Shown here: piece by piece, positions 5,465 through 64,000 of the stretch
Layout of the letters: each line of letters starts with the position of its first letter
Numbering within the stretch: position 1 is the first letter of the stretch
Assembly (NCBI GenBank): GCA_964542245.1
Contig: CAZITU010000001.1
Coordinates: 22,627-86,626 of the forward strand
Source of the DNA: an uncultured Nitrospirales bacterium
Lineage (GTDB): Bacteria; Nitrospirota; Nitrospiria; Nitrospirales; NS-4
Reading direction: 5' to 3'
DNA length: 64,000 nucleotides
The notes under the pieces: generated by a model
The model's database searches: none
Told to the model about the DNA's origin: nothing
Seen by the model: only the letters and a program-made list of their open reading frames with translations
Made by a program: the position numbers and the translations under genes

Positions 5465-7276
5465 ATGCCAGGCGATCTCAGCACGGGAGGGGGAACTTTG
5501 AAGATACCGGCGAGTCTCCTGAAGACCTTCAACGCGACCTTGAGCGAACTGGGCGCCGAGTTGTCCCTGGTCGCCCTCAAGGAAGACGGGTTGGGGCCGC
5601 TCCAGTCGCACGCCCACCGAGGCTTTTCTCCACGCGAGGTCCAGGCCATCATCCGCGCTCTCTCATACCCGGAGGTCGGACTTGATGCGCACGCCGGCAA
5701 CGGCGGTGCAGCCTTGACACCGATCCGCATCCGGATGACCGCGCCTGCCCACCGCTCGCTGCTGAGTATCCCCCTCCGGCACGAGGGGCGAGTTTGCGGA
5801 GCCCTGGTGATCGGACGGAAGGACATTTCCTCCTTCCCTGAGAAAGAGCGGCGCCGACTTGAGGGGAGCGCCGAAGAGATCGAGGCGGCTCTCGGAAAGG
5901 CCGGTGTCCTCATGTGGGAGAGCAGCCGCCACCGTCAACCGAGCGCGCCCGTCCCGGCCGGATCAACGCCGGCGCCTTCCGGCGAGGCCGAGAACCAAGC
6001 GGTGGACTCGCTCATGGGGGAGCTTCGGACCTTGATCCCATACGACCGCGCCCTCCTGAGCCGGTACGAGCCCGACACGAAGACTCTGGTGGCCTTCATG
6101 TCCCACACCGGCGGCATCTGCGAGTGGCGGCAGGAGCAGCCCTTAAAGCTCGACGGATCAGCGGCCGGATGGGTCGTCCGGCATAAGAAACCGAGGCTCG
6201 ACCGCGACCTAGCCTCAACCCAGGGACGGTTCCTGGACTATAAGGAACTCTACAAGGACAAGTTCAAGACGGCGCTGGTGCTCCCTTTGCGGAGAGGATC
6301 AGATCTCATCGGAACAATCGCGCTGGGTTCTCGGACACCGAATCTCTATCACACCGACATGACACGCGCGGCAACCGCCTTGCTGGAGCGGCTTGCCGGC
6401 TTCCTCACGACGGTGGGTCTCCGACCGGGAGCCCCCATCGCGACGGAATCGGTCGGAACGCCGGGCGGCAAAATGTTCTTGCAGGCGGACGTCCCAATGA
6501 GCGCCCAAGATCCCTTGGAGGCCCGGGAGTACCTGCTCCGCCAGGAACGGCAAACGGCGATCCGCGAACTGACGGTCTTTCTTGAGCAGGAGATCCAGCG
6601 GCCGCTGACCAAGACCCGCTTGGACTTGGAAGAGACCATGGGCACCCTGGCCTCCGAGGAAACTCCAACGGTGGGCGCCATGCAGCGAGTGGAGAACGCC
6701 TGCCATGACCTGACCCGGATCGAGGCCATCCTCAACGAGATCCTGGACCACGCCAAACCTCTGGACCTTCGCCCGCGCGTGGTCCGGATCCCGGAGATCA
6801 TCGAAAGCGCCGTGTCGGTCATCACCGGCGAGTTGGAGCAGAATCGCATCACCGTCACACGGCAGTTCTCCGACGTCCTCCCGGCCATCAAGGCGGATGA
6901 GGGCAAACTCCAGCAGGTCTTTCTCAGCATTCTCAAGAACGCCCTGGAGGCCATGACGCCGGAAGGGCACATCCATCTCGAGGCGGTCCCCCACAAAGGC
7001 GTGCGCGGCCGGCATGAGGTCGCCATCACGATCCGGAACGACGGCGCCCCGATCCCCACCGAGTATATCGGCAAGCTCTTCGAGCCCGGATTCACCACCA
7101 AGGCCGCCGGAACCGGGCTGGGGCTCTCCTCGGTCAAGAAAATCATCGAGGAACACCGCGGACAGATCTCGATCGCCAGCGGCCCGGGCCAGGGCACGAC
7201 GGTGATCATCCGCCTTCCTGCGCATACCGCTCCACGCCCAGGCGGGCGCGGGCGCCATCGCCCCCGTCGGCGCTAG
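5465..7276 (+). CDS. GAF domain-containing sensor histidine kinase (soluble, orphan)
   Basis: C-terminal HATPase_c motifs (NALEAM, RNDG, GTGLGLS). Upstream GAF-like regions. No TM segments and no adjacent response regulator. The start is uncertain (TTG 5438 or ATG 5465). Confidence 0.8.
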   Translation: MPGDLSTGGGTLKIPASLLKTFNATLSELGAELSLVALKEDGLGPLQSHAHRGFSPREVQAIIRALSYPEVGLDAHAGNGGAALTPIRIRMTAPAHRSLLSIPLRHEGRVCGALVIGRKDISSFPEKERRRLEGSAEEIEAALGKAGVLMWESSRHRQPSAPVPAGSTPAPSGEAENQAVDSLMGELRTLIPYDRALLSRYEPDTKTLVAFMSHTGGICEWRQEQPLKLDGSAAGWVVRHKKPRLDRDLASTQGRFLDYKELYKDKFKTALVLPLRRGSDLIGTIALGSRTPNLYHTDMTRAATALLERLAGFLTTVGLRPGAPIATESVGTPGGKMFLQADVPMSAQDPLEAREYLLRQERQTAIRELTVFLEQEIQRPLTKTRLDLEETMGTLASEETPTVGAMQRVENACHDLTRIEAILNEILDHAKPLDLRPRVVRIPEIIESAVSVITGELEQNRITVTRQFSDVLPAIKADEGKLQQVFLSILKNALEAMTPEGHIHLEAVPHKGVRGRHEVAITIRNDGAPIPTEYIGKLFEPGFTTKAAGTGLGLSSVKKIIEEHRGQISIASGPGQGTTVIIRLPAHTAPRPGGRGRHRPRRR

Positions 7277-7288
7277 TCGCCGCGCCTC

Positions 7289-7318
7289 TTGACAGTGGAT
7301 CGGCGAATCAGGTATGGT
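7289..7318 (+). promoter_or_regulatory. sigma70-like promoter candidate for the first small secreted protein gene
   Basis: TTGACA (7289-7294), 18-nt spacer, TATGGT (7313-7318), about 70 nt upstream of the ATG at 7389. Confidence 0.35.
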
Positions 7319-7388
7319 CGCGGTGATTCGGCGGGCCCCCTTTCTTTCGGGTCATCTAGAATTGGCTCTTTTAATAAGGAGGGTTTCA

Positions 7389-7730
7389 ATGAAACGCACA
7401 CTGCTTGGGATCGCATTGGTTTCAGGGTTTATGTTCATGGTCTCTTCGGCTTTCGCCAACCCGTCGCTGCTGAAGAAACACGAAGGCTACCCCGACGAGA
7501 CGGGGAAGGCGACGACGGCGAGCGGCGAGGCCGCTGCGCAGAAGGCCGCACAAGACGCTCCTAAGACGCTGAAGGATCAAAACCTCTCCGCTTCCGGGGG
7601 CCAGGTTGACACGCTTAAGCGAGGCGAGGCGCGTTCCCTGCCCACGCCCACGGGCCCAGGCTACGTCGGCAAGGGCGTGACCGAAAATCATGTGAAAGAG
7701 GCCACCAAGGTCAACGCCTCGCCAAGATAA
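7389..7730 (+). CDS. small secreted protein, paralog 1 (unknown family)
   Basis: AAGGAGG SD 7 nt upstream of the ATG. Signal peptide MKRTLLGIALVSGFMFMVSSAFA. The mature part aligns colinearly with the 7942-8277 product. Confidence 0.65.
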   Translation: MKRTLLGIALVSGFMFMVSSAFANPSLLKKHEGYPDETGKATTASGEAAAQKAAQDAPKTLKDQNLSASGGQVDTLKRGEARSLPTPTGPGYVGKGVTENHVKEATKVNASPR

Positions 7731-7752
7731 GCCGGCGACAGCGTTCGCATCG

Positions 7753-7789
7753 GGGGAGGGTCCTGACCGGACCCTCCCCTTTTTATTTT
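7753..7789 (+). terminator. rho-independent terminator
   Basis: Perfect 11-bp GC-rich stem GGGGAGGGTCC / GGACCCTCCCC, 5-nt loop, followed by TTTTTATTTT. Confidence 0.75.
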
Positions 7790-7941
7790 CGGTCGGTCTT
7801 GACGTGCGCGCCGTGGGAAGCACAGACTAAGCGCATAATCCGAGCCGGTCGGGAGCATGGGCTGGATTACACGAAAGGAGGTTAGTCGGATCGCCTGTTC
7901 CCCTTCAACCTCGCTCGATCATATATAAGGAGGTACGCACC

Positions 7942-8277
7942 ATGAAAGCCATTTATTACGCAGGGGCAGTGGTCTCCTCTCTCGCCTTCACTGCCACCGT
8001 CGCCCTTGCCAATCCCGCGATGATGAAGAAGAAGTTCGAGGGTTATCCGAACGAGGGAGGCGGCACGACGGCGACCGGAGCGGCGGCCGCGGAAAAAGGC
8101 GCAGCAGATGCCCCGAAGGAATTGAAGGACCAACTGAGAAGTGCCGGCGAAGGGGACCGTCAATTGAAGCGCGGAGGCGATTCGCGCTTACCCACGGTCA
8201 CCGACCCCGGTTATGTCGGCAAGGGCGTGACGGAAGGGCATATCAAGGACGCGACAAAGGTAAGCCCCAACCCGTAA
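7942..8277 (+). CDS. small secreted protein, paralog 2 (unknown family)
   Basis: AAGGAGG SD upstream. Signal peptide ending ALA|NP. Shares the EGYP, DAPKxLKDQ, LKRG and PGYVGKGVTE..ATKV blocks with paralog 1. Confidence 0.65.
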   Translation: MKAIYYAGAVVSSLAFTATVALANPAMMKKKFEGYPNEGGGTTATGAAAAEKGAADAPKELKDQLRSAGEGDRQLKRGGDSRLPTVTDPGYVGKGVTEGHIKDATKVSPNP

Positions 8278-8300
8278 TGTGAGGAGCTACGGCGGGAAAG

Positions 8301-9521
8301 TCAGCGCCCCTGGCTCTCCCGCTCGTCGCCGGCCCACGTTTTTACCCACGGCAACAAGAGAAACGCCGGCCAGGCCAGGAAAAACGTCGCGGTAAAGTAT
8401 GCGGCGTAGCCGAACTCTTCGGTCACCACGCCGGAGAACGTCCCGGACAGAGCACCGGTCAGGCCGAACAGTGCGCTCAAGAGAGCGTACTGCGTGGCCG
8501 CATGAGCCTTCGAACAGATGCTCATGAGGAAGGCCAGAAAGGGCGCGGTCCCCAAGCCGCCACAGAACGACTCGATGAAGGACGCGGCATACATGAGCGG
8601 CGTGGACGGCGGCAGCGCCGCGGCCGCCGCATAGACCAGATTGGAGACCGCCTGGAAAATGCCGAGCACCCAGAGCGCCCGAAAGATCCCCCATCGGCTG
8701 GTCAGCCCTCCGCCCAGCAAGGCCCCGGCAATCGTGGCCACAACCCCGAATGTTCCAGGAATCAGTGCTATCTCGCTCAAGCTAAAATGACGATCCACCC
8801 AAAACGGCTCCACCATCGGGCCGAGGGCCATGTCACCCAGCTTGAACGTCAACACGAAAACGGCCACGCCCAAAAATCCGGGACGCTGGAGAAACAGTCG
8901 CAGCGGTGTGAGGATCGCCTCCTGCAACGACGGCGGAGGGATGACCCCCTCCCGCGCTCCTGCTGAAACCAAAGTGGGCGCCCGAGACGACACCACAGAG
9001 ATTCCAGCCAGAACCAAGGCTGCGCCGATAAACGCCGCCGTCCAACCGAAGAAATCGGCCGCTGCAATCAATATTCCGCCAGAGCCGATAAGGGCCAAGC
9101 GATAAGCCGTCACCCGCACTCCATTGGCCGGCCCCAGTTCTCTCTTCTCCATAAGCTGGATCGTATACGCGTCAATGGCGATGTCCTGGGTAGCCGCGAA
9201 GATGGCCAGGATAACGAGCAGAGCCCCTACCATCCATACGAGATTCGCTGGATGCATGGCTGCAAACCCTAGAAGGGAAACACCTATGAGCGCTTGGGAA
9301 ACCCAGATCCATGTGCGACGGCTTCCCCAAAGATCAACCGCCGGCGCCCATAATAACTTGAGTGTCCACGGCAGACGGGCTAGGCTCAAGAAACCAATAT
9401 CGGCGAGGCTTATCTCTTGGAGCCGCAGATACGTCGGGATGACTTTCACGACTATCCCGAAGGGGAACCCCTCGGCGAAGTACAGGACAGCCACCCAAAA
9501 AAGTTTCTGCCGCGTGCTCAT
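8301..9521 (-). CDS. MFS transporter (AmpG/PAT-like family)
   Basis: About 12 predicted TM helices by eye. N-terminal YFAEGFPFG...LKLLWAP motif resembles AmpG-type MFS permeases. Confidence 0.75.
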   Translation of the reverse strand: MSTRQKLFWVAVLYFAEGFPFGIVVKVIPTYLRLQEISLADIGFLSLARLPWTLKLLWAPAVDLWGSRRTWIWVSQALIGVSLLGFAAMHPANLVWMVGALLVILAIFAATQDIAIDAYTIQLMEKRELGPANGVRVTAYRLALIGSGGILIAAADFFGWTAAFIGAALVLAGISVVSSRAPTLVSAGAREGVIPPPSLQEAILTPLRLFLQRPGFLGVAVFVLTFKLGDMALGPMVEPFWVDRHFSLSEIALIPGTFGVVATIAGALLGGGLTSRWGIFRALWVLGIFQAVSNLVYAAAAALPPSTPLMYAASFIESFCGGLGTAPFLAFLMSICSKAHAATQYALLSALFGLTGALSGTFSGVVTEEFGYAAYFTATFFLAWPAFLLLPWVKTWAGDERESQGR

Positions 9522-9585
9522 GTTAGGAAATCACAAAGGGGAGGTTGATAGCACGTTCACGGCTGAGCGTCAAACTGTCTCAGTC

Positions 9586-9613
9586 TTGATTCGGAGGAGC
9601 GGCATGGTATACT
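9586..9613 (+). promoter_or_regulatory. sigma70-like promoter candidate for the three-gene unknown operon
   Basis: TTGATT (9586-9591), 16-nt spacer, TATACT (9608-9613). GAGGA SD 6 nt before the ATG at 9650. Confidence 0.35.
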
Positions 9614-9649
9614 GAATTCCAGGTAACCCAGCGACAGCGAGGATCGGGC

Positions 9650-9853
9650 ATGAGGCGCTTCACCATCACCGACATCACCGAAGGAACCGGCCAGCCCCAT
9701 CCGGCGTTCACCCGCGATGCGACCTATCCCGTCCTGGAAGTCGTCTGGCAAGGATCCGGCAATTTGCCCGGGCTTCTGGTCGCCGACGATCAAGGCCACT
9801 TCCATCTCATTCGGATGGATCACTGCCGCCTCGGCAAGATCGAGGCTTTCTGA
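9650..9853 (+). CDS. hypothetical protein (67 aa), first gene of the unknown operon
   Basis: ORF with a GAGGA SD. Only a 3-nt gap to the next ORF. C-terminal His/Cys cluster HFHLIRMDHC. No family recognised. Confidence 0.5.
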   Translation: MRRFTITDITEGTGQPHPAFTRDATYPVLEVVWQGSGNLPGLLVADDQGHFHLIRMDHCRLGKIEAF

Positions 9854-9856
9854 CCC

Positions 9857-10369
9857 ATGCTCCAGTCATCGCCGGAGGAGGTCGGGCGCGAGCTGTCCGA
9901 TCTGGCCTTCGGCATCGTCGAGCAGAACTGGCTGGAGCAGCACGTCGGCAAGGCCGTGGACCTCAAGGGGCTCACCCAGGACCAACTGAATGCCGCCGAA
10001 TGGGAGCTGACCTACCTCATCCTGTTTGCCATCACGAAGGGATGCGGGACCTTTTCCGGAACCGATCCGGATCGGACCACGGCCGTTCTCAAAGCTTTCC
10101 ACAACACGCTCCTGCAACACGTCGCGACCCAAGCGGGGCAGGAGATCGCAGACGGACACCAGAAAAACCTCCCGGCCCGCTACCGGCTTTACGCCGAGGC
10201 GATCAAGGGCGAAGACAAGAACGGTTCGTATAGACTGCTGGGGGAGGCGGCCGCCATCCAGATCCTGGGCCGGCCGATCGAGGACCCGCACATCGCCGAC
10301 AACTTCCGCGAGACCATCAAAGTGATCTTCGGGGAGGTGCGGGACACGGCGACGAAAGCAATGGCTTGA
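9857..10369 (+). CDS. hypothetical protein (170 aa), second gene of the unknown operon
   Basis: Codon bias is consistent with neighbours. Looks helical and soluble. No signal peptide, TM segment or catalytic motif recognised. Confidence 0.55.
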   Translation: MLQSSPEEVGRELSDLAFGIVEQNWLEQHVGKAVDLKGLTQDQLNAAEWELTYLILFAITKGCGTFSGTDPDRTTAVLKAFHNTLLQHVATQAGQEIADGHQKNLPARYRLYAEAIKGEDKNGSYRLLGEAAAIQILGRPIEDPHIADNFRETIKVIFGEVRDTATKAMA

Positions 10370-10384
10370 AGAAAGGGCAACGGC

Positions 10385-10810
10385 ATGGACTTTGACATCG
10401 GCTCCAATCAGTATCGAAACGCCACGAACAGCATCGAGATTGACGGGTTGGGACAATTCTCCTTCGAGTTCAACCGTCGCTACAATGAAACCGCGCTGCG
10501 GGGTCTCATCTTCGACCGAAGCGGCGGCCTGGCGGCCAAGATAGCAGACAGCAGCCTGGATCTAAACATCCGCGGCGAGTTCGAAACCTTGTCCGAGCCT
10601 TCAGTCATTAAGCTTGTCCGGCGCCAAACCCAAGAAGTGCTGCTGGAGGTCAAATTTCTGGACAAAGACCGCATCCAGATCCACAAGGCGAAGCTTTACA
10701 CCGGGAAGGGGCATCCCTTCGAGGTGACACCCACCTCCTGGAAGCTCGGAGAAAACTCCCACAGCGGGGAATACAAAGATTGCGCGGGGGGACCGGTTCA
10801 GTTGCAGTGA
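10385..10810 (+). CDS. hypothetical protein (141 aa), third gene of the unknown operon
   Basis: 15-nt gap from the previous ORF. Alternating hydrophobic patterns suggest a beta-rich fold. No family recognised. Confidence 0.55.
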   Translation: MDFDIGSNQYRNATNSIEIDGLGQFSFEFNRRYNETALRGLIFDRSGGLAAKIADSSLDLNIRGEFETLSEPSVIKLVRRQTQEVLLEVKFLDKDRIQIHKAKLYTGKGHPFEVTPTSWKLGENSHSGEYKDCAGGPVQLQ

Positions 10811-10813
10811 GGG

Positions 10814-11617
10814 TTATTTCGCGCTCTGCGCGCAGCGAAAGCCGATAAAGGCGTTGCGCGTCCCGGACGGAATCTTCGTGGTGCGACTCGCGGATAGGAG
10901 GTAGACCGGCAGATCGGACCAGGATCCCCCGCGGGCAATCTTGTACTGGCCGCGGATCGGCCCAGGGGGGTTCTGCTCGGGAGCGTCGCGATAGTACTCG
11001 CCATCGTACCAGTCCTGAACCCACTCCGACACGTTGCCGGCCAAGTCGAAGGCTCCATACGGCCCTTGTCCCATCGGATAGCTGCCGATGGGTTTCAGGA
11101 GATCATACGAAAACCGGGTTCCTAGACCGAACAAAGCAAGCGTCGGATGCGGCCGAGTATCTCCCCACGGATACTTCCGTTCGTTCGTGCCGCGCGCGGC
11201 TTTTTCCCACTCCGCCTCAGTCGGCAGTCGCCGGCCGCTGATCCGGCAATACGCGTCGGCATCGCCCCAATTGACCCCGACCACAGGGCGCGTCCCGTGG
11301 TCCGGAAGCTTGACCAGGTTCCAGTTGGCCGGTTTGTCCCAGCCTGTGAACTCCAGAAACTTGGCGTACTGCTCGGTTGTGACCTCAAACTTATCAATGT
11401 AGTAGGCGTCCAAAAAGACCTTATGACGCGGCTGCTCGTCGTCCAGTCCAACCCCCTCCGGGAGACCCATCCAGAAGTCCCCTGCCGGGACGAGCACCAT
11501 GGGCGTGCCGTCTTTGGCCGTAATCTCTTGAGGCAGGTCGCTGGAGGCTGCAGCGACGTAGGAAATTCCCGCCGACAGCAAAAGCGTTATCACCCATGCC
11601 TGGCTTCCAAACCGCAT
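10814..11617 (-). CDS. formylglycine-generating enzyme (SUMF1/FGE-sulfatase) family protein, secreted
   Basis: Signal peptide. Motifs HKVFLDAYYIDKFEVT, WGDADAYC...RLPTEAEWEKAARG, RGGSW and GFRC are typical of the FGE-sulfatase domain. Confidence 0.85.
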   Translation of the reverse strand: MRFGSQAWVITLLLSAGISYVAAASSDLPQEITAKDGTPMVLVPAGDFWMGLPEGVGLDDEQPRHKVFLDAYYIDKFEVTTEQYAKFLEFTGWDKPANWNLVKLPDHGTRPVVGVNWGDADAYCRISGRRLPTEAEWEKAARGTNERKYPWGDTRPHPTLALFGLGTRFSYDLLKPIGSYPMGQGPYGAFDLAGNVSEWVQDWYDGEYYRDAPEQNPPGPIRGQYKIARGGSWSDLPVYLLSASRTTKIPSGTRNAFIGFRCAQSAK

Positions 11618-11734
11618 ATATCCTTACTCCATTGTCGTGTTCAAGTGTACCATACACCCGCCTTGACTTCATGATCCCCCGCCCCTATAGTGACCGTACC
11701 GCATGTACGCACGCCCTGGATTTCCCGCCGACTG

Positions 11735-13693
11735 ATGTTGTTGCGGCCAGTATTACCTGCCCCTGACCGAGTCCGGCAACTTTTTATCGTCGCGATCGCA
11801 GCGATGGGCTTGCTGATCGGAACCGGCGGGAACGCCCTGTGGGGGCAACCAGCCCTCTCGAATAAGCCGGAGGAACAGGCCAAGGCTCAAATCGAGAAGG
11901 CGAAGAGGTTGATGCAGGCAGGCAAACCCGAGCCGGCCGTCGAGGCGCTCCAAAAGTTGATCGCCGCCTCCCCTGAAAGCGCGCATGTCCCCGAGGCCTA
12001 TCTGCTGCTCGGACAGGTCCTCTCCAGCCTGCACCTCCCGGAAGAGGCGAATTCATATTACCGGCGTCTCTTGGAAGAGTACCCGTCGTCGGAGTTTGCC
12101 CTGCCCGCGCGGCTGGCCTTATCCGTCGGACTTGTGTCAGCCGGTCAGCCGGACGCCGCCCTCCCCTTGTTGATCGAGGCCAAAGAACAGACATCGGACC
12201 CCGCCGGCAAACTGGTGATCCTGTACCAACTCGAAGAGGTGTACCTCGTCAAGCAGGACTATCCGCGGGCCATTGACTCCGCCATCGAGGCGCGCATGCT
12301 CTCAGCCGAGGACAACCGGCGCCAGGTCGAGGACCGCGTGAGAGACCTCATCAAAACCAAGATCGGCGAGCAGGACCTCCGCCGCATCGCGGACCGGTAC
12401 GCGCAGGCCTTCCCGGGGGACATGGCGTTGCTACGTTTGTTGGATTTGTATGCCTCCTCCGGCGAGGACCACAAAGTCACGCGGACGGCACGGGAGTTCC
12501 TGGCGCGATACCCCCGGCATGAGCAAACGGCAACGGTGACGGGCGCGCTGACCGCCCTGCGTAAGAAGCTCAAGGCCAAGAGCATGCTCATGGGAGCGCT
12601 GCTCCCGCTCTCCGGCTCGATGAGCCCGTACGGCAACGAAGTCCTGAACGGAATCAAGGTGGCCCTGGACCAGGCCGCCGAAGCCAACCCTCCCCTCGCC
12701 GTGGGTCTCGTCACGAAAGACACGGAGAGCGATGCCAAGCGATTGGCGCTCGAGCGCGACGACCTGCTGGAGGACTACCGACCGGTCGCCGTCATCGGTC
12801 CCTTGCTGAGCCGCGAAGTCAAGGCCGTCGCCGCCGCCGCCGACTCACACGAAGTGGTCTTCATCACGCCGACGGCGACCCTCACCGACGTCCAGCGCCT
12901 CAGCCGGCACCTCTTTAATGCCGCCGTCAACAACCGCGCCCTCGTGCGCGAACTGGCCGCATACGCCACCGGACCGCTGGGCTGGAATCGCTTCTGCGTG
13001 CTGGCCCCAGGAGACGCTTACGGCACCGAGATGACTCAGATCTTCGCCGAGGAGATCCGCCGACTCGGCGGAGAGATCATCGCGACCGACACTTACGGAG
13101 CCGAGGACAACGATTTCGGCCCCCCGATCAAACGAATCATGGCGGCGGACCTCAAGCGACACGGGAAACTCGAGCCCTCGACAAGGAAGGGCAAGGACAT
13201 CAAAGTCTATGTGCCGGGGTTCGATGCCATCTTCCTCCCCGGCGAGGCCGAAAAGGTCGGCCTGATCGCCGGGCAGGTGATGTTCTACGCAGCCAAGGTC
13301 GGCCTTCTCGGCACCAACAGCATGAATTCCACGGAACTGCTACGGATCGGCGCCCGAGCGGTCGAGGACGCCGTCTTCGCCGATAGTTTTTCCGTGGACA
13401 GTCCTGACCCCGCTGTGCGAAACTTTGTCGAGCGGTACGTGAAGCGGTTCCACGACCCTCCCACGGCGTTCGCGGCCCAGGCCTACGAGGCGACCCGGCT
13501 GGTGCTGGACGCCATTCGCAAGGGAGCCACCACAGGCCGGGCCCTGCGGGAGAGCCTGAAGGCCGCGAAGAACCTGCCCGGCCTCACCGGGCCGCTCACG
13601 ATGTCCCCCGCCGGACACCTGGAGCGGCGCTATGAGCTCATCCAGGTCAAGAACGGCAAGTTCGTGTCGGTGCAGGGTCGTTCCGGTGAATGA
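11735..13693 (+). CDS. TPR-like N-terminal domain plus type-1 periplasmic-binding-fold protein (LpoA-like / LivK-like)
   Basis: N-terminal signal/anchor and TPR-like helices. The C-terminal half has the Leu/Ile/Val-binding-protein fold pattern (GALLPLSG..., IGPLLS, FLPG). The start is uncertain (GTG 11690 or ATG 11735). Confidence 0.7.
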   Translation: MLLRPVLPAPDRVRQLFIVAIAAMGLLIGTGGNALWGQPALSNKPEEQAKAQIEKAKRLMQAGKPEPAVEALQKLIAASPESAHVPEAYLLLGQVLSSLHLPEEANSYYRRLLEEYPSSEFALPARLALSVGLVSAGQPDAALPLLIEAKEQTSDPAGKLVILYQLEEVYLVKQDYPRAIDSAIEARMLSAEDNRRQVEDRVRDLIKTKIGEQDLRRIADRYAQAFPGDMALLRLLDLYASSGEDHKVTRTAREFLARYPRHEQTATVTGALTALRKKLKAKSMLMGALLPLSGSMSPYGNEVLNGIKVALDQAAEANPPLAVGLVTKDTESDAKRLALERDDLLEDYRPVAVIGPLLSREVKAVAAAADSHEVVFITPTATLTDVQRLSRHLFNAAVNNRALVRELAAYATGPLGWNRFCVLAPGDAYGTEMTQIFAEEIRRLGGEIIATDTYGAEDNDFGPPIKRIMAADLKRHGKLEPSTRKGKDIKVYVPGFDAIFLPGEAEKVGLIAGQVMFYAAKVGLLGTNSMNSTELLRIGARAVEDAVFADSFSVDSPDPAVRNFVERYVKRFHDPPTAFAAQAYEATRLVLDAIRKGATTGRALRESLKAAKNLPGLTGPLTMSPAGHLERRYELIQVKNGKFVSVQGRSGE

Positions 13694-59346: not shown

Positions 59347-60543
59347 TTACGCCCGAACCAGTTTCGTCCACACTGCCAACAGATCCGCCGCACGGTCCGG
59401 GCCATGACACAGCCGGGCGACGTGTTGTCGCGCTGCTTCGCTCATAACGGCCAACCGGCTCCGGTCATCACCCAAACCGACGAGCTCGCGGGCCAGGGCT
59501 CCGGCATCGAACGTGGTCTGCAAGATACCGGTTTCGCCGTTTTGCACGAAGCCATCCCATCGGCCGACGGTCAGCACCGGACGCCCAGCGGCAAGCCCCT
59601 CGATAATGTCCCGCCCCCACGGATTGTCTTCGCGTGTTGGCTTGACCAATACATCGCAGGCAGCCAGCACACGTTCCGGGTCCGGCACATGACCAAGGAA
59701 CAGAAACAGATCACCGACGCCGACTTCCTTGACATAGTCTGCAAGAGTGCCTCCACGCCGGCCGATCCTGCCTAAAAGGCCCGGTAGTGACCGTGACAAT
59801 GCCATATGCCCGGCCACCACGAAGAGGAAATCACGCCTGCCCAAGGCGGCCAGCTCGACGGCAATCTCCACCAGACGGTCGGTCCCACGGACCCATGCGA
59901 AGTTGCTGAGCGAGGCGATCTTCAACCGTCCGTCGCGCGGAACGGACTCGTGCGGCAGGACCGTCTCCAGCAGAGCAGCAGCAATGTTGTAGACGACCGT
60001 GCCGTTAGGACGCCCTCCCATCTTGGCGAATCCGCTCTGTTCATTTTCGGTGATGAAAACCAGGTGGTCAACCGCGCGAGAAATGGTCCGCGCGTGATAT
60101 CGCGTGAATACATTGTCGTACTCCCAACAAATCGTGCGAATGTGCATACTGAATGGGACGGAGGTTCGCCTCCTCAACCAAGACGCCAGGAGGAACAGGC
60201 TCTCGTGATTGAAGTGGACCACATCAAAGCGCTTATTGACCTGATGGGCCAGCTCCGTTCTGAACGATTCGGCCCTCCAGAACCGCCAAAGGAAGTAGGC
60301 GTGTTCGAGCATATTGCGGGAAATTGTTGGAAGCGGGCTGACATTGGGCAGCTCCGGCACAATCTGGCAGGGAATACCGCGCTTCCGATACCGTTCTTGT
60401 ATCGGACCGTGCCTGCGACACCACACCTCCGCATAGACAGCCGACCGGTCCATGTGGTTCAGCGATTCGTAGAGGCTGCGCGAGGAGCCTCCGTAGCCTC
60501 CCTCGATGTCCAGGCACAAGACGCGCACAGGTTCAACTTTCAT
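59347..60543 (-). CDS. glycosyltransferase family 4
   Basis: C-terminal GT-B fold pattern ...LVKPTREDNPWGRDIIEGLAAGRPVLT. 4-nt overlap with the WbqC-like gene. Confidence 0.78.
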   Translation of the reverse strand: MKVEPVRVLCLDIEGGYGGSSRSLYESLNHMDRSAVYAEVWCRRHGPIQERYRKRGIPCQIVPELPNVSPLPTISRNMLEHAYFLWRFWRAESFRTELAHQVNKRFDVVHFNHESLFLLASWLRRRTSVPFSMHIRTICWEYDNVFTRYHARTISRAVDHLVFITENEQSGFAKMGGRPNGTVVYNIAAALLETVLPHESVPRDGRLKIASLSNFAWVRGTDRLVEIAVELAALGRRDFLFVVAGHMALSRSLPGLLGRIGRRGGTLADYVKEVGVGDLFLFLGHVPDPERVLAACDVLVKPTREDNPWGRDIIEGLAAGRPVLTVGRWDGFVQNGETGILQTTFDAGALARELVGLGDDRSRLAVMSEAARQHVARLCHGPDRAADLLAVWTKLVRA

Positions 60544-61244
60544 GCCGCCACCACACTTTTGGAAATCAACTCCGCGGTCGCTGACAAGCCGATCCGGAGC
60601 AAAGGATCCACGATAGAAAGCCCTGCTTCAAATGTCGCTCGACCTTGGTCGTATCGCGGATGCAAGAAATTAACATACCGAAAGCCAAGCCCGGCCTTCC
60701 TATATTTTTCAGGGTCCTGGTAGTCGGCAGCCCCTTTGCCGGAAAGGTACGTTGCTGTTGGGTGAATGGTCGCTACCAGAGAGACCAGTCGGTCATCTCT
60801 CCTCTTACCGCCGACGTCCATATCCGACGAAGCCAAGAAGCGACAGCGCAGGTTCATCTCTCGGCAGAGATTCTCCACCAGATACCGGTTAATGGCTGCA
60901 AGGTTAGCTTGGGGAACGCCGAGAAGCAGATCCTTGAGCTTAGGCCAGACAGCTCGGAAAGCAGGCGTGTGAGAATACAGGTTCCGCAACGAATCAAGAT
61001 GACTATTGGGCCAATCCGATACAGCCGGGCGCACCGTATGAATCCCGTCTCCAAAGCTGTAGGACACTGGGATGGTCAACCACCCCGGCCCATTCGGTCC
61101 CAGTATTTTGACTCGGTTTATGTAACTGTTTTTGCTGTACTGGGCGTCATCCAGAAAGATGAACGCATCGGCAGCGGCGATCTTGTGGAAATAGCCCAGC
61201 CATGGGAGATAGTTCGGCTGATGAATCGCAACTGTTGTTTCCAT
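60540..61244 (-). CDS. WbqC family protein
   Basis: The N-terminus VAIHQPNYLPWLGYFHKIAAADAFIFLDDAQYSKNSYINR is characteristic of WbqC-like proteins of O-antigen clusters. Confidence 0.8.
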   Translation of the reverse strand: METTVAIHQPNYLPWLGYFHKIAAADAFIFLDDAQYSKNSYINRVKILGPNGPGWLTIPVSYSFGDGIHTVRPAVSDWPNSHLDSLRNLYSHTPAFRAVWPKLKDLLLGVPQANLAAINRYLVENLCREMNLRCRFLASSDMDVGGKRRDDRLVSLVATIHPTATYLSGKGAADYQDPEKYRKAGLGFRYVNFLHPRYDQGRATFEAGLSIVDPLLRIGLSATAELISKSVVAA

Positions 61245-61246
61245 GT

Positions 61247-62257
61247 TCAGTTGCGACTATCCAAGGCCCCAAATCTCCGACGATACAGAACCTCCATCTC
61301 CTCCGAAGAGAGATCATCAGGCGCCCTGATTTCCCATGTCTCGTCGTTCACGATAGCGTAACTCGACTGGGGCAGAAAGCCAAACTTCCGCTTCTGGGAA
61401 AAGGCCCCTCTCATCCCGTCGATTGCCATTCCTCTTTCTGCACAAGATTGAATGACTCCAAGAATGACCGCTCCTGATGCGTTGTTGGGAAACGGCTTGT
61501 ACAGATTGAAAAGATACACCGCATTTTTGTTCTTTTCATCCACAGCCCATAGGCCAAGGCCCACGTCAATACCCTGGAAGCTAACCTTAACGCAATTTAG
61601 CATTCCCTTTGCGTCAATCAATCTCAGCATTGCCAGGGCAGATTCTCTGTACTTCGGATCACCGTAAATACATGACTTGCCTCTGCGAATGAAGCTCCTC
61701 GCCGTATGCTCCATATACGAAACGCACAGGGACTCCCACGCACCATCTCGCGCATCTGTACCATAATCCATCTGGAATCGCCGGAGCGTGTATCTGACCT
61801 CCTTCCGCCTACTAGGGCTCAACGTCATCAGGTAGTCCTCAAAGCTACAATATCTCGGTACTACCCAGTACTGGTTATATGGCACATCCCACCACCTGCA
61901 GGATTCAGGCAGATACGGCAACGGGTCCTGATCCCAGGAAAGCAATCGAAAGCGAAACCCGCCCGTTTTCAGAAATTCGAAAATGTCCCTCTCCCCACCA
62001 GAAGGTCCTAAAAATCCGTTTCTTTCGTTATAATAAAGACCACCATAGAAAGAGAGCGTTCCGTTCACCATCCCGGCCGGAAGTATGGTCCCGGTTGTCC
62101 TGTTTACAATAAAAAAAGGCTTCATGCCGGAAATTTCCGATAACGATACTCTGAGCTCCCAATCCGAAAAGACACTCGATTCGCGACGGGATTGAACCCA
62201 TAGTTTCTCGCAGGCATTCATCGCACACGTTATCTCAATATTCTCATCGTGTCCCAT
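61247..62257 (-). CDS. GNAT-fold acyltransferase, FemAB/BioF2-like (Acetyltransf_6-like)
   Basis: The C-terminal region ...YLFNLYKPFPNNASGAVILGVIQSCAERGMAIDGMRGAFSQKRKFGF resembles FemAB-like GNAT domains. Markedly lower GC than upstream genes. Confidence 0.55.
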   Translation of the reverse strand: MGHDENIEITCAMNACEKLWVQSRRESSVFSDWELRVSLSEISGMKPFFIVNRTTGTILPAGMVNGTLSFYGGLYYNERNGFLGPSGGERDIFEFLKTGGFRFRLLSWDQDPLPYLPESCRWWDVPYNQYWVVPRYCSFEDYLMTLSPSRRKEVRYTLRRFQMDYGTDARDGAWESLCVSYMEHTARSFIRRGKSCIYGDPKYRESALAMLRLIDAKGMLNCVKVSFQGIDVGLGLWAVDEKNKNAVYLFNLYKPFPNNASGAVILGVIQSCAERGMAIDGMRGAFSQKRKFGFLPQSSYAIVNDETWEIRAPDDLSSEEMEVLYRRRFGALDSRN

Positions 62258-62299
62258 GGCCCCGGCTATTTCCTCAACTTTCCCGAACCTCCACAGAGA

Positions 62300-63007
62300 T
62301 CATCCAGACTTCCCAAATCCCATAGCCTCGTAAATTACGATCGTGTTCTTAAAACCCTTGAGTTCGTGCAACGCTCTCAACCATGGAACGCTCTCAATAT
62401 ATTGGCGATGTTCTCTGGGATTATAATAGCAAAGCCGAAGAGTCCTCGGATTAGACTTGAGGCTGTGTTCAATATTTTGCATGACAGACCTAAGGGTATT
62501 TATCCCAAACGGATTTGCGATGAGAATGATCGTTTCATCACGAATCTCAACAGAACATGCATCCTCGTTTATAAATTCTATTTTTGACTTGTCGAACCGA
62601 AAGCTCCTCGCATTTCTGATACAATAGTCGTACGCGACATCGTGTAGTTCAATCCCCCTGGACCGCCTCGCGTAAGATCTCGCGAAAACAAAGACGGCCC
62701 GTCCCGTTCCACATCCCACATCCATGAAGACATCTTCATGAGTCGGGCACAAAAACGTCCTCAGGCGGACCAACCAGACCACGGGCGTTGGTATGTTGGC
62801 CTTCGAATCTCGAAACTTCCCTCCAATCCAGTCGCCAGGCTTGTATTTGGCGACCAGGGATGTCTCTATGCCGTATCCGAGATCGAAGAGCGCATCTATC
62901 ACGCGGTTGCCACGCTGATATGCCGTTTCAACGACCTGCCATAGTTTTCCTCGAAGAGAAAGCGGAAGAATGTGCCATAGGTCGGAAATAAGGTGGCGTG
63001 GCATCAC
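62300..63007 (-). CDS. class I SAM-dependent methyltransferase
   Basis: VFMDVGCGTGRAVFVFA motif I and downstream GIELH acidic loop. Low-GC gene. Confidence 0.7.
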   Translation of the reverse strand: MMPRHLISDLWHILPLSLRGKLWQVVETAYQRGNRVIDALFDLGYGIETSLVAKYKPGDWIGGKFRDSKANIPTPVVWLVRLRTFLCPTHEDVFMDVGCGTGRAVFVFARSYARRSRGIELHDVAYDYCIRNARSFRFDKSKIEFINEDACSVEIRDETIILIANPFGINTLRSVMQNIEHSLKSNPRTLRLCYYNPREHRQYIESVPWLRALHELKGFKNTIVIYEAMGFGKSG

Positions 63008-63015
63008 CTGATCAC

Positions 63016-64000
63016 TTAGTTAGCCTGAGTCCAGCGATCGAAGTAGTGGGCGATATTTTCCGTCAGATTCTCGGTCTCCAAGATTTCTACGAACTCGCCA
63101 AACTGTCGCTTAATGGCGATTCTATCTTGCTCTTGGAGCTCAGTGGAGCGGTAAACGCTCACCTTGTAGTCAAGGAGGCGCGCCTCAGGTCCTATCAGGT
63201 TGTTGGCCTTAGCATGAATGAATGCGCGCATGACATGAGATTCGGAGTCCTGAAATTCACTGGAACACCACGCCGCAATGAGCTTGCACGTCGGTTTTTC
63301 TCGTCGAAAGTGGGTGGCGTAATCGGAGATATCGCTGATCATGTTGAAAATCTCGTCCTGGTGGAATCGTGCGAAGGCAAACAGCCGCTCGGCTTTGTCT
63401 TCCACGAGCATATGCAGGTGCTTGGTATCGGCACTGATGGGAGTCAGGTTGAGAACGCCGCTTTCCCCGCGAATGTGATTCAATCGGGACTGGGAGGTAA
63501 TGCATAAGCGTCGGGCCTGTAACGTGGCTCTATCGGTTCTGACATGCACAAGTTTAGCGGATTCCTGAACGCAGATCTCCAGCGCTGTGGTTTCCGTCAA
63601 AATCCTCACGGAATCATGATTGAGCAGAGCGCGGAGGCGACGGATAAAGCGAGGAGCGCCCCCCATGGGATACCTGGCCCGAGGTGCGCCGACCTTCACG
63701 AAGCGCCAAAACCACATGAGACTTATCACCAGAGGCACAAAGACTGTTTGCTTTGGATTCCTGAGTACTTCCTGGAGGCCAGCTCGCGAAAAGAAACGCC
63801 CCAATGCAGGAAAGAGGACAAGGTTCCACACGTGTGCGCAAGGTGTCCTGGTGGGCATCGGTCCGTATTTCGGCAGAATCCAAAAGGGCTCGGGTTGCAT
63901 GCGCGTCATCGGGATGCCAAGGACATTTTCAATATACCGGTAGCCTTTCCGCCAGTGCCTCATGATGTGGGCGCCGATTTCGACCTCTTCAAACCCGAAC
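63016..64000 (-). CDS. hypothetical protein, possibly the C-terminal part of a FAD/NAD(P)-dependent oxidoreductase (amine-oxidase-like); 5' end beyond the window
   Basis: The frame stays open upstream of the ATG at 63963 to the window edge (..FGFEEVEIGAHIMRHW..). YPMGGAPRFIRRLRALL...VRILTETTALEI...RRLCITS resembles the substrate-domain pattern of flavin amine-oxidase-like enzymes. The assignment is weak. Confidence 0.4.
   Translation of the reverse strand, partial: FGFEEVEIGAHIMRHWRKGYRYIENVLGIPMTRMQPEPFWILPKYGPMPTRTPCAHVWNLVLFPALGRFFSRAGLQEVLRNPKQTVFVPLVISLMWFWRFVKVGAPRARYPMGGAPRFIRRLRALLNHDSVRILTETTALEICVQESAKLVHVRTDRATLQARRLCITSQSRLNHIRGESGVLNLTPISADTKHLHMLVEDKAERLFAFARFHQDEIFNMISDISDYATHFRREKPTCKLIAAWCSSEFQDSESHVMRAFIHAKANNLIGPEARLLDYKVSVYRSTELQEQDRIAIKRQFGEFVEILETENLTENIAHYFDRWTQAN

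Follow-up and report, generated by a model that had tools for sequence, protein, structure and literature searches.

Three small adjacent genes, here designated A, B and C, were found to constitute a vertically inherited unit of one uncultured Nitrospirales clade. They lie in a stretch of 64,000 nucleotides (nt) from an uncultured Nitrospirales bacterium (GenBank assembly GCA_964542245.1, contig CAZITU010000001.1, positions 22,627 to 86,626 of the forward strand), which is called the window and to which all coordinates given without a locus or contig name refer. The three genes are genuine protein-coding genes, almost certainly transcribed as a single operon from a promoter of their own, and their products were soluble, mildly acidic, cytoplasmic proteins of three unannotated families. 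It is proposed tentatively that these proteins work together as one complex.

Inheritance and expression of the trio

An earlier reading of the window, made from its letters alone (the sequence-only reading), had described three co-directional open reading frames (ORFs) of 67, 170 and 141 amino acids (aa), separated by 3 and 15 nt, and this layout was reproduced exactly from the ORF list. The same reading had placed them between a divergent MFS gene and a convergent FGE-like gene whose stop lies 3 nt from the stop of C, and both neighbours were confirmed (Table 1). In the window, the stop codon of A and the start codon of B are in the same frame, and the Shine-Dalgarno boxes of B and C stand 8-11 nt upstream of their respective starts.

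To follow the three genes across genomes, a set of 64 loci was assembled from a scan of GTDB species, from contigs fetched by protein identity and from a metagenome scan; the complete trio was present in 51 of these loci, 43 of them unique. Wherever the contig reached, each of the 64 loci contained A, B and C side by side in one constant order, and no solo copy of any of them was seen in this set. The sequence-only reading had allowed that the ORFs might not be conserved as a set in related genomes, which was not the case. The trio was single-copy at a fixed chromosomal position, no presence/absence polymorphism was detected within the clade, and no paralogues were found in the window or in the fetched loci when all six-frame ORFs were searched with local hidden Markov models (HMMs). 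The gap between A and B measured 2-7 nt, and in 50 of 59 loci it was an in-frame gap of exactly 3 nt; the gap between B and C ranged from -11 to 73 nt, and C was separated from the FGE gene by 1 to 4499 nt. Rearrangements were observed at both flanks and none inside the trio, which is therefore a stable unit.

Database relatives numbered 114 for B, 157 for C and, as called genes, 15 for A. None was less than about 60% identical, and wherever a source was named it was a metagenome-assembled genome (MAG) of Nitrospirae, Nitrospirota, Nitrospirales or Nitrospiraceae. The low count for A reflected under-calling by gene finders: at the DNA level the gene was present in every locus, always with 67 aa and with 79-96% identity across loci. 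The homologues of C were 61-100% identical and were all located on Nitrospirales-type contigs. When one genome per GTDB species was scanned, C was found in 20 species, all of them represented by Nitrospirales-type MAGs except for two bins labelled Acidobacteriota and Deltaproteobacteria; since the syntenic genes are the same in these two, they are regarded as mis-binned contigs. The carriers came from soil, groundwater and sediment metagenomes. These results showed that the trio is inherited vertically as a unit of this one clade.

The composition of the ORFs had been described as host-like and unlike that of noise ORFs, and the measurements agreed. The G+C content at third codon positions (GC3) was 0.73-0.83 in A, B and C, compared with 0.72-0.88 in the adjoining genes. 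The ratio of nonsynonymous to synonymous substitution rates (dN/dS), calculated pairwise by the Nei-Gojobori method for 21 loci with a median dS of about 1.1, was 0.08 for A, 0.20 for B and 0.19 for C, and the variability of the three genes peaked at the third codon position of the + frame. Since low dN/dS, third-position variability and host-like GC3 coincided, A, B and C were confirmed as genuine protein-coding genes; the dN/dS values ruled out their being noise ORFs. An antisense ORF at 9866-10456 (196 aa) was also considered and rejected as a high-GC artefact, because the third-position variability showed that the + frame carries the coding signal.

The TTGATT-16-TATACT promoter and the GAGGA Shine-Dalgarno box proposed for A are both present, and the promoter motif was conserved among the related loci. 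In the window it was the sole sigma-70-like site within 9300-11000, where 0.4 were expected from shuffled sequences. The strict form TTGATT-N13-TGnTATAY was found in 34 of 40 unique upstream regions, the other six carrying near-variants, and a GGAG-type box occupied the equivalent position in most related loci. The motif was kept whichever orientation the upstream MFS gene had, and therefore the three genes have a promoter of their own. No terminator-like site was found on the + strand inside the trio, and the Rfam search returned no riboswitch or leader RNA in 7000-12000. All the features by which bacterial operons are recognised (co-directional genes, short gaps, one promoter and no internal terminator) were observed in the window, and the order, the tight spacing and the upstream promoter recurred in the related loci. 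Hence, the compact operon described by the sequence-only reading is upheld, with near certainty, as a single transcription unit.

In three lineages (L006:5760-5796, L014 and L019), no more than 9-10 nt separated the -10 box from the start codon ATG of A, while elsewhere the leader measured 42-47 nt and contained the GGAG box. This arrangement implies a leaderless or near-leaderless messenger RNA in those three lineages, as judged from the promoter position.

Programmed read-through of the UGA codon from A into B was considered as well, given the in-frame TGA-CCC-ATG junction of 50 loci. It was rejected as a conserved feature, since nine loci have TAA, TAG or out-of-frame gaps at this position.

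Protein families, structural models and remote relatives

None of the three proteins contained a transmembrane segment, the maximum of the Kyte-Doolittle 19-residue window being at most 1.07, as the sequence-only reading had expected. Their isoelectric points were 5.2-6.0. The absence of P-loop, nuclease, HEPN and PIN signatures was likewise borne out, since no such motif fell on invariant columns and no Pfam match was obtained.

Five short hydrophobic stretches alternate along the sequence of A, and invariant residues, among them H17, H52, D57 and C59, made up 43% of it across 38 unique sequences. The His/Cys cluster noted near its C-terminus was thus only partly sustained: H52 and C59 were invariant, but H50 and H58 varied among the same sequences. 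H17, H52, D57 and C59 together make a candidate metal site.

B had been predicted to be all-helical, and the AlphaFold2 model contained seven helices with a mean predicted local distance difference test (pLDDT) score of 93.9 and a predicted template modelling score of 0.90. The invariant polar residues of B were E48, E50, H82, R108, Y109 and Y112, and only two of its histidines, H82 and H101, were invariant. An Rx5H motif (R139 to H146) fell on variable columns, and no Rx4-6H motif, acidic quartet or GxxxxGK[ST] motif was found on invariant columns. The model of C was all-beta with 11 strands (pLDDT 68.4), in line with the beta-rich protein anticipated for it. The C-terminal and N-terminal ends of C (residues 123-141 and 1-13) were highly conserved, yet the monomer model gave them pLDDT values below 50; the sequence at the N-terminus is MDFDIGSN-YRN, and the residues E129, D132 and C133 were invariant. 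Conserved but poorly modelled termini are typical of segments that fold on a partner.

The claim that the three proteins have no recognisable family withstood searches of curated libraries, of PDB profiles and of structures, together with an exhaustive HMM search for B. Pfam, NCBIfam and PHROGs gave zero matches at E≤0.1 for A, B and C of the window, PADLOC-DB v2 gave zero matches at E≤1, and scans of the alignment members of the three families yielded sub-threshold matches only. Searches of PDB by profile and by sequence, with the family profiles of the trio and with the remote B-like protein P0253 described below, produced nothing better than E 0.14. Foldseek comparisons of the B model found no significant neighbour in PDB (best E 0.4, template modelling (TM) score 0.24) or in BFVD (best E 0.35, TM ≤0.3), and the C model had no match in PDB at E<0.1. 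Furthermore, no relatives of the trio turned up among 50,697 phage records and 72,556 plasmids, nor among IMG/VR contigs or in BFVD. Assignment to ordinary known families, which the sequence-only reading had named as a possible outcome of profile searches, did not occur. By the comparisons made here with libraries, PDB and BFVD, A, B and C lie outside the known families and systems.

The profile of B was then searched against 1.84 billion representative proteins. Only 11 proteins were obtained at E≤0.001, nine of which were the B family itself or fragments of it; the other two, P0253 and P0254, were marginal singletons with E values of about 1e-4. The alignment of B with these two by hhalign gave probabilities of 95-96%, and the three have in common the elements E-W-E-L, (F/Y)-H and R-Y-x-x-Y, all of them invariant in B. 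A metagenome scan for further remote B-like proteins recovered only the trio itself and P0254. On the evidence of these sequences, B belongs to a very sparse unannotated superfamily that is defined by a Glu/Glu/His/Arg/Tyr/Tyr constellation, and the set of three genes is peculiar to this Nitrospirales clade.

P0254 also matched the Pfam family DUF6985 (PF22481) with 16.4 bits and E 0.013 over residues 69-142 (model positions 9-82), which is exactly the stretch homologous to B. Among the B proteins themselves, 0 of 34 members matched DUF6985, whose threshold is 24.5 bits for a 148-position model. Additionally, three of 33 members of C matched DUF6984 (PF22480) over about 35 residues, with a best E of 0.0027, and the C consensus reached 13.6 bits (E 0.071, model positions 52-86), so that the threshold of 24.6 bits for this 101-position model was not attained. 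The occurrence of consecutive accessions, PF22481 and PF22480, for the B-like and the C-like matches is suggestive, being unlikely by pure chance, and these sequence matches hint that DUF6985 and DUF6984 may also be partners. Both families are uncharacterised and no papers were found under either name; tblastn of P0253 and P0254 against plasmids recovered no annotated DUF6985 member.

A further sub-threshold match linked C to LPD18, a domain that occurs in polyvalent proteins of phages and conjugative elements. It was seen in four of 33 members, with 17.8 bits and E 0.0036 against a threshold of 26.8 bits. C differs from the context of LPD18 in being a stand-alone chromosomal protein of 141 aa without phage or plasmid relatives.

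Two other candidate identities were rejected. The match of A to DUF7393 (12.5-15.3 bits, threshold 27 bits) extended over only 11-12 residues (LVADDQGRFHLI) of a 48-position model and was regarded as a short-motif coincidence. The match of C to DNA_ligase_A_M (E 0.07-0.18) explains one spurious name given by the Joint Genome Institute.

A tentative A-B-C complex and its alternatives

The favoured reading is that A, B and C would be made together by coupled translation and would function in the cytoplasm as a single heteromeric complex. Its core would be B, supplying a ligand-binding, metal-binding or catalytic pocket; this part is given to B because Glu48, Glu50, His82, Arg108, Tyr109 and Tyr112 are all that it has in common with its distant relatives. 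A would be a mini-domain of roughly five strands presenting His17, His52, Asp57 and Cys59, and, like C, an obligate partner subunit bound to B.

Four observations were counted for physical association, namely the Shine-Dalgarno box of B inside A, an A-B fusion, the high proportion of invariant residues in A and the conserved termini of C with low pLDDT. The fusion was found on a soil contig, L036 (Ga0137365_10059676), where positions 2076-2837 form an in-frame A-B ORF in which the stop codon of A has changed from TGA to TGC and the Shine-Dalgarno box of B from GAGG to GAAG. It lends weak Rosetta-stone support to a physical association of A with B.

The chances that the three proteins assemble into one complex are considered even, and the existence of a ligand or metal pocket, predicted from conserved residues, is doubtful. 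A coupled cytoplasmic A-B-C complex with the pocket on B, taken as a whole, is held at slightly less than an even chance. A metal- or small-molecule-dependent activity would be plausible from the identity of the residues. A conflict system is less likely than a lineage-specific role of the housekeeping type, for example that of an enzyme or sensor handling a metal or a small molecule. A more specific version, an undescribed heterotrimeric, cytoplasmic and possibly metal-dependent enzyme or sensor built on a new helical fold of B and restricted to this clade, with B-like and C-like proteins as the diverged tip of a wider DUF6985/DUF6984 pair, is thought rather unlikely.

Several points weigh against the proposed complex. 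The whole neighbourhood is syntenic in the clade, with a flanking gene order conserved over about 10 kb, so that shared descent partly explains the co-occurrence of the three genes. Only one metagenome contig carries the fusion of A with B, and an assembly or sequencing error is possible there. The model of C was moderately confident, and only one of five models exceeded pLDDT 60. The genes beside P0253 and P0254 do not resemble A or C, and the partnership is therefore not ancient. Finally, the putative metal or ligand site is inferred solely from residue identity.

The constant presence of an AmpG-family MFS gene beside the trio, in every locus and despite repeated replacement of the cassette, brings to mind an accessory role in peptidoglycan recycling or in the cell envelope, in which the AmpG permease would import a fragment that A-B-C binds or processes. 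The genes just downstream, for a TPR and LppC/LpoA-like periplasmic binding protein and for an M50 peptidase, would suit such a role, as would the loci of the plus type described below, where permease and trio are co-directional. Nevertheless, the conserved promoter of the trio is retained in either arrangement and the permease is divergently transcribed in the window, and the synteny of the whole region means that the adjacency may have been inherited and not selected. Moreover, no similarity to NagZ, AmpD, LdcA, AnmK, MurQ or Mpl was detected in the trio, and canonical AmpG-bearing bacteria do without these genes. On balance, this explanation is improbable.

Less probable still is that A, B and C are three functionally unrelated lineage-specific genes, with neither a complex nor a common pathway, that shared ancestry has kept adjacent. 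Their restriction to one clade in which the flanking order is also conserved, and the different neighbours of the remote B-like genes, would be expected in that case. However, both flanks are prone to rearrangement and the trio was never split, the 2-7 nt spacing between A and B and the embedded Shine-Dalgarno box of B have been kept across a dS of about 1.1, one conserved promoter precedes the three genes, and a variant with A and B fused exists.

A small conflict system (toxin-antitoxin-chaperone, anti-phage defence or toxin-immunity) might be suspected from the compact layout of three very small genes without a known family, from the sub-threshold matches to LPD18 (E 0.0036), DUF6984 (E 0.0027) and, through P0254, DUF6985 (E 0.013), and from an insertion spot after C, where other loci have a UvrD-like helicase, a RelE/ParE-type pair, and a protease next to an endonuclease-like gene. 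It is very unlikely, however, given the absence of matches in PADLOC and PHROGs, of relatives in phages, plasmids, IMG/VR contigs and BFVD and of any conserved nuclease, HEPN or PIN motif, the single copy at a fixed locus with vertical inheritance and host-like GC3, and the strong purifying selection without presence/absence polymorphism in the clade.

If the proposed A-B-C complex were real, it would comprise three new protein families, including one confidently modelled fold without a solved or viral structural neighbour, and it would represent a lineage-specific function of widespread uncultured Nitrospirales of soil and groundwater. If the link to DUF6985 and DUF6984 were also true, the operon could help to reveal the function of a wider pair of partners. 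Being small, soluble and self-contained, it lends itself readily to co-expression, to structure determination and to screening for ligands or metals. Hypothetical operons restricted to one clade are common in genomes assembled from metagenomes and the trio contradicts no existing knowledge, and the expected pay-off is moderate. The trio is a clean target and not a surprise, and it opens no long-standing question.

Surroundings of the trio and comparison with known systems

The positions of the three genes, their expression signals and their immediate neighbours are collected in Table 1.

Table 1. Coordinates in the window of genes A, B and C, their expression signals and the adjoining genes.
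Feature	Position	Strand	Description
Promoter of the trio	9586-9613	+	-35 box TTGATT at 9586-9591, 16-nt spacer, -10 box TATACT at 9608-9613
Extended -10 TG	9605-9606	+	Inside the 16-nt spacer of the trio promoter
GAGGA Shine-Dalgarno box of gene A	9639-9643	+	6 nt ahead of the ATG; read from the sequence
Gene A	9650-9853	+	67 aa, soluble, unannotated family; most conserved member of the trio
GAGG Shine-Dalgarno box of gene B	9842-9845	+	Within the 3' coding end of gene A
Gene B	9857-10369	+	170 aa, soluble 7-helix protein (model), unannotated family
AAGGG Shine-Dalgarno-like box of gene C	10373-10377	+	Read from the sequence
Gene C	10385-10810	+	141 aa, soluble all-beta protein (model), unannotated family
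MFS gene (AmpG-family), divergent	8301-9521	-	Upstream neighbour of the trio
FGE-sulfatase-domain gene, convergent	10814-11617	-	Stop 3 nt from the stop of C

The AmpG-family slot upstream of the trio was occupied in loci L001-L067 by two alternative cassettes, which lie on opposite strands and were never found together. The cassette of the window type (minus) scored 320 bits on TIGR00901, below the cutoff of 350, and the cassette on the opposite strand (plus) scored 486 bits. The two cassettes were about 35% identical to each other and were interleaved on the tree of the trio itself, which implies recurrent replacement of the AmpG cassette by recombination.

The spacer between C and the FGE gene, which measures 3 nt (10811-10813) in the window, was a variable insertion spot in the related loci (examples are L023:5430-7120, L044:5900-9483 and L026:2096-6597). 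The cargo found there included a receiver-domain protein with a PilZ protein, a YaaC-like protein, an ankyrin protein, a DUF3050-like protein, a trypsin-like protease with a 140-aa ORF, and a UvrD-like helicase with a RelE/ParE-type pair. In many relatives, gene C was followed by an element of about 115 nt that is rich in GC and contains a long-range internal inverted repeat (TTGAGCGGGT...ACCCGCTCAA). This element was located at L023:5465-5578 and, inverted, at L023:6995-7109, as well as in L010, L012, L016, L020, L027, L034, L039, L048, L050, L054, L061 and L065, and in four loci two copies in inverted orientation enclosed the inserted cargo. The element is not a transfer RNA gene, matched no Rfam family and was absent from the window; it could be an element resembling miniature inverted-repeat transposable elements or repetitive extragenic palindromes, or an attachment site.

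Upstream of the MFS gene, the window contains two paralogous small proteins of 138 and 111 aa (7314-7730 and 7942-8277, both on the + strand), with an N-terminal signal-like hydrophobic stretch and a common C-terminal motif, LPxxTGPGYVGKGVTExHxKxATKV. One or two copies were present at this position in all related loci, and no NCBIfam match was obtained for them. On the other side, a protein of 667 aa (11690-13693, + strand) combines TPR repeats with a periplasmic-binding-protein domain, and its orthologues match Pfam LppC (LpoA-like). Taken with the AmpG gene upstream and the M50 peptidase gene downstream, it lends the region a cell-envelope character. Far from the trio, at 60000-64000, the GC content drops from about 0.62 to 0.51-0.53, and the genes there encode a GT4 glycosyltransferase, a WbqC-like protein, a methyltransferase and two ORFs without a Pfam match. 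This region looks like a polysaccharide or O-antigen-type cluster and was possibly acquired horizontally.

The trio was finally compared with three kinds of known system. The heme-oxygenase-like and TenA-like proteins, including the heme-oxygenase-like di-iron oxidases, resemble B in having about 170 aa, seven helices, and Glu and His residues conserved on different helices of the core, and heme oxygenases and TenA recurred among its top Foldseek matches (ranks 2, 4-6, 8, 11, 14, 17 and 19). The similarity was not significant (E 0.7-3, TM 0.15-0.25, root-mean-square deviation 14-18 Å), and even the best heme oxygenase match, with E 0.72 and TM 0.22, was far from E<1e-3 and TM>0.5. Heme-oxygenase-like di-iron enzymes carry a set of three His and three carboxylates, whereas B has only two invariant His, and it gave no sequence match. 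The recurrent matches of B to heme oxygenase and TenA were rejected on account of their TM of about 0.2.

Three-gene toxin-antitoxin and defence modules, as represented in PADLOC, are alike in being short, tightly linked ORFs of unknown family beside a variable insertion spot. The trio differs from them in the lack of a PADLOC match, of mobility and of a patchy distribution, and in its strong purifying selection. Among named heteromeric complexes, none had a detectable likeness to A, B or C in sequence or fold. As a generic class, translationally coupled operons for heteromeric enzymes are alike in their tight spacing, internal Shine-Dalgarno boxes and single promoter, and also in their strict co-inheritance and occasional gene fusion.

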